Shown piece after piece: positions 14,595 through 18,812 of a DNA stretch of 64,000 nt; the stretch's first letter is position 1, and every line of letters starts with the position of its first letter. Source of the stretch: Kordia sp. SMS9 (GTDB lineage: Bacteria; Bacteroidota; Bacteroidia; Flavobacteriales; Flavobacteriaceae); the NCBI RefSeq assembly GCF_003352465.1, contig NZ_CP031153.1:546465-610464 (forward strand), in the 5' to 3' direction. Below the pieces are notes generated by a model. It searched no databases. It saw nothing but the letters and a program-made list of their open reading frames with translations, and was not told where the DNA came from. Made by a program: the position numbers and the translations under genes.

Positions 14595-14620
14595 CTACTG
14601 CGTAAAAAGATTGCGTAGTT
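14595..14620. promoter_or_regulatory. Operator-like motif copy 1 (ctactgcgtaaaaagattgcgtagtt)
   Basis: One of four near-identical ~25-nt motifs (consensus ACTACGYAAAAAKAWTGCGCASTT) in intergenic regions of the RNA-repair island; this copy lies between the WYL regulator and the exonuclease. Confidence 0.5.
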
Positions 14621-14708
14621 AAATAACATTCTTTGCACAAGTTCTTTTACATACATGTGCGTCGGCTTCATCTGTCAAACAAAAACAAATATTAAATTTA
14701 ATTAAAAG

Positions 14709-15260
14709 ATGAAAACAACAAACAAAATCCTAGTAGTAGACTTAGAAGCTACGTGCTGGGAACAAGATGGCGAATACCAACGAGCTCACAGTGAGATTAT
14801 TGAAATTGGTGTTTGCGAATTGGATACCCTTACGGGAGAAATATCCAAGCAACAAGGAATTCTCGTAATTCCTGAACATTCCGAAATCAGTCGATTTTGC
14901 ACAGAACTCACCTCAATTACACCCGAAATGGTAGCGCAAGATGGCGTTCCGTTTGAAGATGCAATTGAGATACTTTTTAACGAGTATGATGCGTCTGCAT
15001 ACACCTGGGCAAGTTACGGCGCGTACGATCGCAACAAAATGATCGAAACATGCAGACAAAAAAATGTCGATTTCCCATTCGGATATCAACACATAAACGT
15101 GAAAGAAGAGTTCAGACGTTGCAACCGAATGCGACGCGGCATCGGAATGGCACGCGCATTAAAACAACTTCGGATTCCTTTAGAAGGAAAACATCACCGA
15201 GGCGTTGATGATGCCAACAACACCGCAAAAATCTTACATTGGTGTTTAAATAATCCGTAA
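14709..15260 (+). CDS. DEDDh-family 3'-5' exonuclease (ERI-1/KapD-like)
   Basis: Exo I motif VVDLEAT, Exo II YGAYD, Exo III HHRGVDDANNTAKI (H-x4-D). Confidence 0.7.
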   Translation: MKTTNKILVVDLEATCWEQDGEYQRAHSEIIEIGVCELDTLTGEISKQQGILVIPEHSEISRFCTELTSITPEMVAQDGVPFEDAIEILFNEYDASAYTWASYGAYDRNKMIETCRQKNVDFPFGYQHINVKEEFRRCNRMRRGIGMARALKQLRIPLEGKHHRGVDDANNTAKILHWCLNNP

Positions 15261-15315
15261 GATGACCTTATAAATTTTTAAATTTTGATTAGCCTGGTGG
15301 CTAATTTTTTTTGCT

Positions 15316-15340
15316 TAAAAAACTTTACTACGTAAAAAGA
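15316..15340. promoter_or_regulatory. Operator-like motif copy 2 (tactacgtaaaaagattgcgcagtt)
   Basis: Second copy of the same motif, upstream of 15453. Confidence 0.5.
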
Positions 15341-15452
15341 TTGCGCAGTTTTTTACTTCTTTTGCCAAAGTTCATTGAAACACTTTTGAAATCAGTTTCC
15401 AAAAGATATGTGTGCCAATCATGACACATATAACTTTTAAAAAACAAACATT

Positions 15453-15749
15453 ATGAATTGGAAAATTCAAAAACTACTTGATGGTGAGACCATCATTTCA
15501 AAAGAACCTGGTAATTCTATGTTGCCACTTTTAAAATCGAAGCAACCTGTAAAGTTGCAGCCTATTTCTTGGGAAGATTGCGAAGTGGGTGATATTGTCT
15601 TTTGTAAAGTTCGCGGAAATGTATTTACACATTTAGTGAAAGGAAAAAACGAACGGCGCGGATTGTTAATTGGAAACAATCATGGCAGAATTAACGGATG
15701 GACAAAAAATGTATATGGTAAAGTAATAGAAATATTACCGATGTCATAG
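15453..15749 (+). CDS. Small S24/S26-like serine peptidase domain protein (LexA/UmuD-like catalytic domain without HTH)
   Basis: GNSMLP motif, which resembles the GDSM catalytic-Ser box of LexA/UmuD and signal peptidase I, with downstream Lys residues; 98 aa. Confidence 0.4.
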   Translation: MNWKIQKLLDGETIISKEPGNSMLPLLKSKQPVKLQPISWEDCEVGDIVFCKVRGNVFTHLVKGKNERRGLLIGNNHGRINGWTKNVYGKVIEILPMS

Positions 15750-15947
15750 ACATTCTTCACGTATTCAAATTAACAATCGTAATATTTTGGGCGTTCCCGC
15801 TAAGCGGTCGGGCTTTCCGTAGTCGCTTTTTTGTGTTGTCATTACAACTCAAAAAGAGCTCCAACAAAACGTCAATCCCTAACGCAAACTACCATTTAAA
15901 ATTCAAACTACATTGCCACAAAATAAAAACCTAAAAACACTACGCAA

Positions 15948-15972
15948 AATAATTGCGCACTTCCAATCAATA
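15948..15972. promoter_or_regulatory. Operator-like motif copy 3 (cactacgcaaaataattgcgcactt)
   Basis: Third copy, ~190 nt upstream of rtcB. Confidence 0.5.
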
Positions 15973-16156
15973 TTTGTTTCGGAATTATAAATAAGGTCAT
16001 TTCTATATGACAAAGTAACAACGCTCCGCTACATATTGAAAGTAGCGGAGTTTACAAAAAAAGTATCATGAAATGAGGCATAACGAGTAGTTGACACCTA
16101 CCAAATGACGATGGCGAATTCCATCTGACAAATTAAAAACAATAAAATAGTAACAG

Positions 16157-17542
16157 ATGAAAGAACACATTCAAATCAACGGAAACACTTTAATCGACTT
16201 AGGTTTCAAACCTAAAAAATGGTTTAAGGAAGCTATTGCGCATATCAATAACAATCAATTGCAACATGATGAAATGCTCACGTATTTGGAACAGTTCAAA
16301 TCTGATCCTGAAATAAAATTACATGAAAATCCGATTGCCTTTTCTATCAATATTGAAGCCGAGAATGAAGTAGAAAAGAAAAACGTAGCAGATGTTATCA
16401 ATACGATGAATACCTTAATGAAAACGCCAACATTGGTCAACGGAGCTGTAATGCCTGATGCCTGTCCTACAGGTCATATTGGCGTGATTCCTGTGGGCGG
16501 CGTTGCGGTTGCCAAAAACGCCATTCATCCAGGAATGCACAGCGCAGATATTTGCTGCTCCGTCATGTTAACCGATTTTGGAGATGCCAATCCGCAAGAC
16601 GTTTTGGATGCCGCACATAGCATTACACATTTTGGTCCTGGCGGAAGATCGAGAGAACATCAATTCAGATTTCCTATGGATTTATTGGCAGAAATTGAAG
16701 CAAATTCCTTTTTAAATGATCAAAAATGTATTTCAGCAGCGCGTTCACATTTGGGAACACAAGGTGACGGAAACCATTTCTTATTTGTAGGAACGTCTAA
16801 AAAAACAGGAAATACGATGATGGTTACGCATCATGGAAGTAGAGGTTTTGGAGCGAATTTGTATAAAAAAGGAATGAAAGTCGCAGAGCAATTCCGAAAA
16901 GAAGTATCGCCACAAACCTTAAAGCATAATGCGTGGATTCCTTTCAATACTGAAGAAGGAAAAAGCTACTGGGAAGCCTTGCAAATTGTACGTAAATGGA
17001 CCAAGAAAAACCATGAAGTCATTCACGATGCAACCTTAGAGAAATTAGGTATTGCAAAAGAAGACAGATACTGGAACGAACATAACTTTGTTTTCAAAGA
17101 TGGCGATTTGTTCTATCATGCAAAAGGTGCAACGCCTTTGGATAAAAGGTTCATGCCAGACATTACAGGACCGCGTTTAATTCCACTAAACATGTCGGAA
17201 CCTGTATTAATTGTAACAGGAGAAACTACGGAATCCAACTTAGGTTTTGCACCACATGGCGCGGGAAGAAACATCAGCAGAACGCAACATAGAAAAAGCA
17301 AAACAGGAACGATTCAAGAAATTTTTGAATTAGAAACTAAAGACTTAGATGTGCGTTTCTTTTCCAACGAAATTGACATTACCGAATTGCCATCTGCCTA
17401 CAAAAATGCTACAACGGTAAGAGCTCAAATGGAACACTTTGGGTTGGGTGAAGTCATTGATGAAGTGATGCCGTTTGGTTGTATCATGGCGGGTGATGTG
17501 AGCAAAAATGCGCCTTGGAAGCGTAAAAAAAGGAGAAAATAA
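16157..17542 (+). CDS. rtcB: RNA-splicing/repair ligase RtcB
   Basis: [27 protein letters not shown], and the HGAGR motif ([14 protein letters not shown]) are the metal/GMP-binding signatures of RtcB; 461 aa. Confidence 0.9.
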
Positions 17543-17586
17543 CCTACATTGTCAAAAACTATCTTAAAAATGCACGGAATAAAAAA

Positions 17587-18054
17587 ATGAAAACAATTAG
17601 TAAATTCGTAAAGTTTTTGGGCATAGTTTTTGGCTTTTTAGGCTTCTTATTGGTCCTTTTACTAGTATCTCCTTGGATCTATGTAAAAAACCGAATTTGG
17701 GGACGAAAACTTCGAAAAAAAATAAAAGCTCAATTAAAAAAATACGATGGGAAAATAATATTTCTATATGGAGAATATCACACCTTTGACTTTGAATGGT
17801 ATTTTCAAAAATTTCATCCAGATATCACTTGTTTGCAAGTTCCTAATCATCCTCCAATGGATCCGTTTATTCTGTATTTAAGTGCTAGAAACCCACCTAA
17901 AAGCTTACCACAATTGGTAAAGGTTACAGACGGACACACCTTTAAAAAAACACACTATTCGTCATTCAAATATTACATACGAAAACAGAAAGATGTCATC
18001 CGTTTTTTTGAACTCATGGAGCGATCTATTAAAAATTTACAAGAAATCGAGTGA
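17587..18054 (+). CDS. Hypothetical membrane-anchored protein
   Basis: ORF track; N-terminal TM (FLGIVFGFLGFLLVLLLV); no recognisable catalytic motif. Confidence 0.45.
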   Translation: MKTISKFVKFLGIVFGFLGFLLVLLLVSPWIYVKNRIWGRKLRKKIKAQLKKYDGKIIFLYGEYHTFDFEWYFQKFHPDITCLQVPNHPPMDPFILYLSARNPPKSLPQLVKVTDGHTFKKTHYSSFKYYIRKQKDVIRFFELMERSIKNLQEIE

Positions 18055-18068
18055 AAAATTAAATCACC

Positions 18069-18782
18069 ATGACCAAAAGAAGCAGAGGAAAAGAAGGAAG
18101 TGACGACCGTTTATTTGGCGATCCAAAAATGCAGTCAAAAATGCGAGAAGCCATCAAAGACTTGTCGTATTTATTGAGCAGAGGATTCTCTGAAAAATCG
18201 TCATTGGCATTGGTTGGAAATCGATATAAGCTCAACAATCGCCAACAACGTGCCGTTCAAGGAATGAGTGAAGCAAGTCACAAACTCGAAAAACGTGCAG
18301 CGAACTGTTTATTGCCAAATCAATTAGCAGAAAAGGAAGTCTATATAGACGGTTTTAATGTATTAATCCTATTAGAAAGTGCGTTGTCGGGCGCGTATCT
18401 CTTCAAAGGTTTAGATGGTTGCTATCGTGATATATCAAGCGTGCATGGAACGTATAAAAAAGTAAAACAAACGCCAGAAGCCATTCAACTCATTGCAAAC
18501 TTTCTACAAGAAAACAAGGTCAAAAAAGCTACTTGGATCTTTGACAAACCTGTTTCCAATAGTGGACGACTAAAAACAATGCTACGAGAATTCGCAGACG
18601 AGCATCAACTCCATTGGGAAATCATTTTAGACAATAATCCTGACAAATTTATCGCAGAAAGTAATCAAATCGCCATCAGTTCGGATGCTTGGATTTTAGA
18701 CAATGCAACAACTTGGTGCAATATGGTACGACAGATTGTAGACGAACACATTCCACAGAAAAATGTAGTGGAATCTGAATAA
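18069..18782 (+). CDS. Hypothetical protein (operon partner of RtcB island)
   Basis: ORF track; 237 aa; no motif I can assign with certainty. Confidence 0.45.
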   Translation: MTKRSRGKEGSDDRLFGDPKMQSKMREAIKDLSYLLSRGFSEKSSLALVGNRYKLNNRQQRAVQGMSEASHKLEKRAANCLLPNQLAEKEVYIDGFNVLILLESALSGAYLFKGLDGCYRDISSVHGTYKKVKQTPEAIQLIANFLQENKVKKATWIFDKPVSNSGRLKTMLREFADEHQLHWEIILDNNPDKFIAESNQIAISSDAWILDNATTWCNMVRQIVDEHIPQKNVVESE

Positions 18783-18786
18783 AAAA

Positions 18787-18812
18787 TTACTACGCAAAAA
18801 TAATGCGCACTT
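18787..18812. promoter_or_regulatory. Operator-like motif copy 4 (ttactacgcaaaaataatgcgcactt)
   Basis: Fourth copy, upstream of the nucleotidyltransferase operon. Confidence 0.5.

Follow-up and report, generated by a model that had tools for sequence, protein, structure and literature searches.

Five copies of a 23-bp inverted repeat are present in a 64,000-nucleotide stretch of the Kordia sp. SMS9 genome (contig NZ_CP031153.1, positions 546,465 to 610,464; hereafter the window, with coordinates counted from its first nucleotide). Judged from sequence, the repeat is very probably the binding site of the regulator encoded next to it, a protein with WYL and WCX domains, and it defines an undescribed RNA-repair regulon. 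With moderate confidence, we propose that a dimer of this WYL protein occupies the repeat within special sigma-A promoters and that the regulon would be activated in a manner resembling that of DriD and PafBC. The parts of this proposal differ in strength: binding of the motif by the WYL protein is highly likely given the comparative data, and activation rather than repression by it is, by analogy with known systems, fairly probable.

An inverted repeat recurs in one island of the window

The window was searched with a degenerate consensus, allowing up to three mismatches, and 100 dinucleotide shuffles of the same DNA served as the background. Five copies were found, all on the plus strand, versus 0.01 expected. 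A position weight matrix (PWM) made from these five copies and scanned over the entire window scored them at 35.6 to 38.2 bits. Their reverse-strand matches scored 13.3 to 17.7 bits, and the best remaining match, at 13.0 bits, lay inside a gene. All five copies are intergenic and co-oriented with their downstream genes, which agrees with the initial annotation of this DNA, where the motif was described as confined to the intergenic regions of this island. That annotation had counted four copies. Those four are genuine, and the sequences quoted for them are all present, but a fifth copy at 30666-30688 had been overlooked, and two of the four quoted sequences start 10 nt away from where they had been placed (at 15326 and 15938, not 15316 and 15948; the starts at 14595 and 18787 were correct).

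Each copy is 23 nt long and forms an imperfect inverted repeat, ACTRCGYAA-N5-TTGCGYAGT. Equivalently, the element can be written CTACGCA-N7-TGCGYAG (a 7-N7-7 arrangement with a 21-bp core). The spacer is asymmetric and A-rich, and the phylum-wide consensus is ACTACGCAAAAWNATTGCGYAGT. Copy 1 lies in the divergent region shared with the WYL gene, as had been noted before, 38 nt from the WYL start codon.

The motif is linked to the WYL gene across Bacteroidota

Homologs of the WYL protein number in the thousands, and the best 120 are 72 to 100% identical to it. The regulator is >70% identical in Flavobacteriales, Saprospiraceae, and Chitinophagales and 41 to 55% identical in gut and rumen Bacteroidales. 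Starting from the regulator, we assembled 80 genome loci with a WYL ortholog from Flavobacteriales, Saprospiraceae, Chitinophagales, Bacteroidales, and others. The motif was present at least once in every one of the 80 loci. A cut-off of at least 20 bits gave 150 sites, of which 148 came from the 683 kb of upstream sequence, on the divergent side of the WYL gene, versus 2 from the 704 kb downstream. Nearly all of the upstream sites (146 of 148) were oriented away from the WYL gene, and 63 sites were <100 nt from the WYL start codon, typically at ~38 nt. When all loci were shuffled once as a control, no site was found.

The opposite approach started from the motif. A metagenome collection was scanned with the motif plus the −7 promoter box described below; at least 120 stretches matched, and the counts refer to the matches listed. 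Among these, a divergent WYL homolog (41 to 86% identical) adjoined 55 of the 117 sites that had enough flanking sequence (47%). The remaining sites among the matches listed preceded RlaP operons, rtcB paralogs, a family of ~750 to 780 amino acids (aa), and other genes. In 24 distinct homologs that have kept the motif although they are only 41 to 54% identical overall, the predicted recognition helix (residues 47 to 63) was the best-conserved segment of the protein, with an identity of 0.76 compared with 0.41 for the WYL and WCX domains, and S49, R51, Q54, D56, M60, R61, and S62 within it were invariant. The predicted DNA-reading segment is thus held constant alongside the motif, which gives correlative support to the view that the WYL protein reads it.

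The genes behind the motif were tallied for 155 sites, namely, the 150 from the 80 genome loci and the five window copies. rtcB, which encodes an RNA ligase, was the commonest first gene (68 of 155 sites). RlaP was first at 8 sites, the exonuclease at 6, a 98-aa protein at 6, and other known island genes (74-aa basic protein, Band-7, WYL, and DUF434) at 8. At 43 sites the first gene had no match to any island gene, and at 16 there was no open reading frame (ORF) within range. Among the 43 unmatched genes are an Rnl1-type RNA ligase, DUF6331, and members of two families of ~590 and ~750 aa. Since the same gene types stand behind the motif in other genomes (it is found 5' of rtcB, RlaP, exonuclease, and 98-aa homologs in other genera), the four transcription units named in the initial annotation appear to be conserved members of one regulon. 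Its proposal of a single regulon with a shared site under the adjacent WYL protein is likewise strongly supported by this comparative evidence, from which we infer binding by the WYL protein.

An exact match to the core motif was found in only one of 2.9 million viral contigs (IMGVR_UViG_3300009958_000037, L201; positions 439-459, minus strand).

The motif takes the place of the −33 promoter element

A TTTG follows each copy in the window at a spacing of 11 or 12 nt (Table 1), and an A stands three positions ahead of it at every copy. The same arrangement was found in the 80 genome loci, where the gap between motif and TTTG was 11 nt in 129 of the 150 sites, 12 nt in 11, and neither in 10, and where position +9 after the motif was A in 90% of the 150 sites. 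According to the flavobacterial transcription-start atlas, the sigma-A −7 box reads TAnnTTTG and lies at −12 to −5 (PMC9723704). Because TTTG is the Bacteroidota sigma-A −7 box at that position, the 23-mer would span about −42 to −20, with the 21-bp core at about −41 to −21, so that 8 bp separate the core from the TA of the −7 box.

The −33 TTTG would be expected 19 nt 5' of the TA. This place is taken by AAAA of the spacer, and motif positions 8 to 11 are A in 91 to 99% of sites. There is a TTG within the proximal half-site, only 13 nt from the TA. The site thus overlaps the −33 position, keeps a constant distance to the −7 box, and comes with no recognizable −33 element, as in promoters served by WYL activators. 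The motif, first described as operator-like, looks like part of the promoter itself, at a fixed position and in place of the −33 box, and this points to activation over classical operator repression.

The 30 nt upstream of the 150 sites contain A/T-rich tracts only, with no conserved promoter box 5' of the motif. For this reason, a role of the motif as a roadblock downstream of an upstream promoter was ruled out.

The candidate regulator and its possible signal

The candidate regulator is a 337-aa protein encoded divergently from the island, and it matches a Kordia sp. SMS9 protein with 100% identity. Pfam detected its WYL (E = 6.9e-12) and WCX (E = 5.3e-15) domains, both beyond the curated cut-offs, and detected no helix-turn-helix (HTH). 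In the AlphaFold2 (AF2) model, residues 1 to 81 form three helices and a beta wing, i.e., a winged HTH (wHTH). The mean predicted local distance difference test (pLDDT) score of this model is 76.6, with values of <50 for residues 99 to 149, so that the three-helix-bundle region is of low confidence. Foldseek matched the model to DriD (5e-14, full length), PafBC (2e-11), CapW (5e-8), and BrxR (4e-7). A sequence search from the regulator reached DriD only over the WYL-WCX region, with an E value of ~1e-3.

DriD contacts single-stranded DNA (ssDNA) through Y192, R204, W206, R207, and Y240 (PMC10853764). In a low-identity alignment, these residues correspond to F199, M211, L213, A214, and T247 of the regulator. 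F199 and A214 are invariant in the WYL family alignment, and T247 is conserved in at least 90% of its members. Given the regulon content, damaged RNA is an attractive candidate ligand, and WYL transcription factors have been proposed in general terms as possible sensors of RNA with cyclic ends that may regulate RNA repair (PMC9503650). We consider an RNA-damage signal, e.g., cleaved RNA, possible rather than probable, and the damage-responsive switch suggested in the initial annotation is likewise presumptive.

Copy 1 is only ~38 nt away from the start codon of the WYL gene, and therefore the promoter of that gene itself must overlap this copy. On the reverse strand, most genera have TTTTG within the motif and a TATTTT(T)C box 19 nt further on; the Kordia copies have TTTTTA in place of the TTTTG. 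The copy adjoining the WYL gene probably serves, as far as can be read from its position, in autoregulation of that gene.

Comparison with known systems

The promoters of Caulobacter crescentus DriD (PMC10853764, PMC13004042) offer the closest parallel. DriD has the same architecture (wHTH, three-helix bundle, WYL, and WCX) and is the best fold match. Its site, ATACGAC-N7-GTCGTAT, is also of the 7-N7-7 format, overlaps a missing −35 element, and lies at a fixed distance from the −10 element (PMC13004042). By our own count on the published DriD oligonucleotides (PMC13004042), the engineered −35 TTGACA corresponds to site positions 7 to 12, which puts the −35 place in the central spacer, as with the expected −33 place in Kordia, and the −10 hexamer is 8 bp past the site. 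Both systems therefore have a 21-bp pseudo-palindrome with an AT-rich spacer, centered at the −35/−33 place of promoters that lack a −35/−33 element, at a fixed 8-bp distance to the −10/−7 box, and both have one site in the regulator's own promoter. They differ in the half-site (ATACGAC versus CTACGCA in Kordia) and in promoter type, the Kordia promoters being of the Bacteroidota −33/−7 type. DriD targets DNA-damage and cell-division genes, whereas the Kordia regulon is one of RNA repair (RtcB, RlaP, RNA ligases, and the YrlA-like RNA). Sequence identity between the two proteins is only 17 to 22%, and the ssDNA-contact residues are not conserved in the Kordia WYL protein.

The "sigma adaptation" promoters of mycobacterial PafBC (PMC8635444, PMC11804915) likewise depend on a WYL activator and have a normal −10 element, no −35 element, and an activator-specific element at about −26; in Kordia, the proximal half-site covers about −27 to −21. 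PafBC, a heterodimer, recognizes a single asymmetric element in the DNA-damage response, whereas the Kordia site is symmetric and presumably bound by a homodimer.

With respect to function, the nearest counterpart is RtcR, which controls rsr-yrlBA-rtcBA or rtcBA in Salmonella and E. coli (PMC7790460). Here, too, one ligand-sensing factor switches on RtcB and YrlA RNAs, and the signal is damaged tRNA (PMC7790460). RtcR, however, belongs to the CARF-AAA+ enhancer-binding proteins and works at a sigma-54 promoter, unlike the Kordia WYL protein and its sigma-A promoters. Kordia also has five separate promoters instead of one operon, and neither RtcA nor Ro60 (Rsr) turned up in the searched part of the island. 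In Anabaena, a long tRNA array (L-array) and rtcB share a cis-element and are co-induced under translational stress; repression has been proposed, and the regulator is unknown (PMC8421152). The Kordia island resembles this arrangement in having ~24 tRNA genes beside rtcB. The Anabaena element consists of tandem 9-nt direct repeats over the −10 element and the transcription start, in contrast to the Kordia inverted repeat, which is centered at about −31 and has a candidate regulator, and in Kordia the motif plausibly drives no more than the first tRNA block.

In the searchable literature, whose coverage stops short of the key comparative paper on RNA repair, we found no description of the motif or of an rtcB regulon under WYL control in Bacteroidota. 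What would be new is a DriD/PafBC-style class of WYL-dependent promoters that is built on −33/−7 promoters and governs RNA repair instead of DNA-damage or anti-phage genes. Control of bacterial RNA-repair induction is known only for enterobacterial RtcR and sigma-54, and the motif would give a phylum-wide handle on a second solution, with a defined 23-bp site, a defined candidate regulator, and a directly testable regulon. Should RNA prove to be the ligand, the paradigm of WYL activators would widen from the sensing of DNA damage to that of RNA damage.

Proposed mechanism and alternatives

In the mechanism we propose, a dimer of the wHTH-WYL-WCX factor would bind CTACGCA-N7-TGCGYAG, built into sigma-A promoters 8 bp 5' of the −7 box (nAnnTTTG). 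Because these promoters have no −33 element, they are proposed to be poor in the absence of the signal. A nucleic-acid-derived ligand would bind the WYL domain and free the wHTH domains, which would then bind the repeat and recruit or stabilize RNA polymerase. Five units would be switched on jointly: the exonuclease; the 98-aa protein; rtcB with two further genes; the operon from RlaP to the dehydrogenase, probably induced together with the first tRNA block; and the YrlA-like RNA with the Band-7 gene. A more far-reaching version, which we put forward tentatively and regard as doubtful, has the WYL protein act as master activator of an "RNA SOS response" throughout Bacteroidota. It would sense damaged RNA (cleaved tRNA or rRNA ends) rather than ssDNA, as a counterpart of RtcR with an unrelated sensor, and by a DriD-like replacement of the −33 element it would turn on RtcB and other ligases, RlaP, the YrlA-like RNA, spare tRNA arrays, and uncharacterized families.

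Several points weigh against activation of the DriD type. The WYL family has well-studied repressors that are divergent from their targets in this same layout, and a repressor that needs to cover the −33 region could likewise show constrained spacing. Bacteroidota promoters conserve the −33 box only weakly, which keeps its absence here from being decisive. The ranking of fold matches is weak evidence given the moderate quality of the AF2 model, and the ligand or the binding mode may differ from that of DriD, whose contact residues are not kept in the low-identity alignment. In addition, the motif scan in Kordia covers only the 64-kb window.

In one alternative, the WYL protein is a repressor of the CapW/BrxR type, such that the unliganded dimer on the −33 region would block RNA polymerase and the ligand would release it. 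CapW and BrxR, which repress the anti-phage systems CBASS and BREX, respectively, are wHTH-WYL-WCX proteins of the same family, encoded divergently from the operons they control, and bind palindromes of roughly 20 bp (PMC9122588). Both are among the fold matches of the Kordia protein (E = 5e-8 to 4e-7), although DriD and PafBC rank above them. Part of the region that RNA polymerase contacts is covered by the site, and the WYL gene's own promoter must overlap the site as well. CapW sites overlap the −10 element, whereas the core of the Kordia motif ends 8 bp before the −7 box and overlaps neither this box nor the transcription start, in the five window copies and in 140 of the 150 sites. The single register kept at these 140 sites, across dozens of genera, fits a stereospecific contact with RNA polymerase better than occlusion, and with AAAA in place of the −33 TTTG the promoters look too weak to need repression. 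We therefore consider repression unlikely, yet the most serious of the alternatives.

The identity of the binding protein and the nature of the element can be questioned as well. Co-localization alone cannot name the protein that binds a motif, and another, unlinked global regulator might do so, with the WYL gene being merely one member of the regulon. This seems quite improbable, given that the position ~38 nt from the WYL start is kept in 63 of the 80 genomes, that 47% of the motif-first sites among the matches listed adjoin a WYL gene, and that the recognition helix, like the motif, is kept where the remainder of the protein diverges. The 7-N7-7 format is also that of DriD, and we noticed no other regulator gene with a consistent link, though no systematic check for one was made. 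A role of the repeat as RNA (hairpin, terminator, or processing site) or as a promoter for an alternative sigma factor such as sigma-54 can be given hardly any credence. A terminator scan does flag two of the copies, on the minus strand, and E. coli rtcBA is sigma-54 dependent (PMC4012209). The would-be pair of positions 4 and 20 is an A-C mismatch in 51 of the 150 sites, so that primary sequence and not pairing is conserved; the constraint therefore acts on DNA, and a hairpin or terminator was ruled out. A sigma-54 promoter was ruled out by the lack of the GG-N10-GC signature (CTRCG stands in place of TGGCAC) and by the sigma-A −7 box after every copy, and two-fold symmetry is not expected for recognition by a sigma factor. 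No sigma-54 activator domain was present among the island genes searched, and the combination of TGGCAC-N5-TTGC with a CARF-AAA+ gene, as in RtcR systems, was not found.

Regulon content

The predicted genes and tRNA genes between 14.7 and 32.6 kb are on the plus strand and make up an RNA-repair island. It begins with a DEDDh exonuclease, the 98-aa protein, RtcB, a membrane protein, a DUF434/DUF5616 protein, and a 74-aa basic protein. Two RlaP nucleotidyltransferases, a 235-aa protein, a short-chain dehydrogenase, five tRNA genes, and a 676-aa protein follow, and the island ends with ~19 tRNA genes, an Rnl2-type RNA ligase, an RNase H-like protein (PF04308), a non-coding stretch, and a Band-7 protein. 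Coordinates of the motif copies, promoters, and target units are given in Table 1. The five tRNA genes of unit 4 would be co-transcribed with the operon, since the block begins 13 nt past the dehydrogenase stop.

Table 1. Motif copies, promoter boxes, candidate regulator, target units, and leader hairpin in the window
Feature	Position	Strand	Description
Motif copy 1	14597-14619	+	ACTGCGTAAAAAGATTGCGTAGT; divergent region, 38 nt to WYL ATG (14558), 89 nt to exonuclease ATG
Motif copy 2	15327-15349	+	ACTACGTAAAAAGATTGCGCAGT; after terminator-like hairpin 15287-15306, before 98-aa gene
Motif copy 3	15939-15961	+	ACTACGCAAAATAATTGCGCACT; 5' of rtcB leader
Motif copy 4	18789-18811	+	ACTACGCAAAAATAATGCGCACT; 7 nt past DUF434/DUF5616 stop, 5' of the operon from RlaP to the short-chain dehydrogenase
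Motif copy 5	30666-30688	+	ACTGCGCAAAATGAATGCGTAGT; 12 kb further downstream in the same co-directional island, 5' of conserved non-coding RNA and Band-7 gene
−7 box TTTG, promoter 1	14632-14635	+	12-nt spacing; predicted transcription start near 14640
−7 box TTTG, promoter 2	15361-15364	+	11-nt spacing
−7 box TTTG, promoter 3	15973-15976	+	11-nt spacing
−7 box TTTG, promoter 4	18823-18826	+	11-nt spacing
−7 box TTTG, promoter 5	30700-30703	+	11-nt spacing
Candidate regulator	13545-14558	−	337 aa; predicted wHTH, three-helix bundle, WYL, and WCX (Pfam, AF2, Foldseek)
Target unit 1	14709-15260	+	DEDDh 3'-5' exonuclease (RNase_T/KapD-like)
Target unit 2	15453-15749	+	98-aa protein, GNSMLP motif
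Target unit 3	16157-18782	+	RtcB RNA ligase (16157-17542), 155-aa membrane protein (17587-18054), DUF434+DUF5616 protein (18069-18782)
Target unit 4	18918-23488	+	74-aa basic protein, RlaP (19154-19900 and 19897-20958), 235-aa protein, short-chain dehydrogenase (21637-23019), five tRNA genes (23032-23488)
Target unit 5	30708-32551	+	Structured non-coding RNA, then Band-7/SPFH gene (31451-32551); terminator-like hairpin 32586-32622
Leader hairpin, promoter 3	16023-16051	+	CTCCGCTAC...GTAGCGGAG; common to rtcB and copy-5 leaders
Leader hairpin, promoter 5	30757-30783	+	As for promoter 3

The regulon list gives a physiological context to DUF434/DUF5616, to the ~590- and ~750-aa families, to a 450-nt tRNA-mimic RNA, and to long tRNA arrays. 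The ~590-aa and ~750- to 780-aa families recur as first genes behind leaders of ~245 to >600 nt (L010:4627, L011:8417, L092, L114, L158, L161, L170, and others). A representative of the ~590-aa family had no significant match in Pfam and none in PDB or PHROGs, and the ~750-aa family had no significant Pfam match, only a sub-threshold one to Prok-RING_4. By eye, the C-terminal part looks TerD-like, and some of the contigs stem from human gut metagenomes. On the metagenome contig L192, a T4-Pnk-like HAD phosphatase (166 aa) and a helicase-like protein of 835 aa are encoded behind the motif, which suggests further lineage-specific members of the regulon.

The product of unit 2 had been labeled S24-like, and its GNSMLP motif resembles the catalytic serine motif of S24/S26 peptidases. 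Nothing was found for this 98-aa protein in Pfam, in a PDB sequence search, or in PHROGs, and NCBIfam gave only a weak, sub-threshold match to signal peptidase I (E = 0.027); the label is thus not established.

RNAs, leaders, and tRNA arrays behind the motif

The RNA behind copy 5 is ~450 nt long. Its conserved core lies at about 30815-31240 (within 30708-31440, plus strand), and nucleotide-level conservation was seen in 15 loci that represent several genera. RNAalifold predicted 87 pairs, 45 of them with compensatory changes, and the RNA holds two permuted tRNA-mimic modules, in the order T-arm, hairpin, and D-arm, that are supported by covariation. The Rfam YrlA model matched at 31009-31122 with 32.5 bits (E = 5e-5), below its gathering threshold of 69 bits, and the Rfam tRNA model matched at 31066-31135 with 35 bits. 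This module appears YrlA-like, but it is not a scored member of the Rfam YrlA family. No Ro60/TROVE protein was found in the searched part of the island.

The leaders of rtcB and of the copy-5 RNA share a hairpin (Table 1) and a conserved 5' end, TATCGGAATCATAAA. The hairpin has 10 pairs, 8 of which show compensatory changes among 25 leaders from other genera, and it is no obvious terminator, as it lacks a U-tract. A mini-ORF, ATGAAATGA (Met-Lys-stop), is present at 16068-16076 (plus strand) and also in L050 and L052. It stands where rtcB starts in genomes with ~90-nt leaders, and the genomes with the mini-ORF have an extra 80 to 90 nt ahead of the actual rtcB start. Between the 98-aa gene and copy 3, the Rfam Flavo-1 RNA model gave a weak match (15802-15894, minus strand; 25.5 bits, gathering threshold 42).

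The tRNA genes of the island, about 24 in total, are arranged in a block of 5 (23032-23488) and a second array of ~19 (26514-28504), both on the plus strand. No motif was found directly 5' of the second array in the window scan. Some of the anticodons are unusual for bacteria (Val-AAC and Gly-ACC). Long tRNA arrays on the same strand as the motif were found in at least six other WYL loci (L012, L025, L030, L045, L062, and L065); the motif lies 5' of the array in L030 and inside it in L025.

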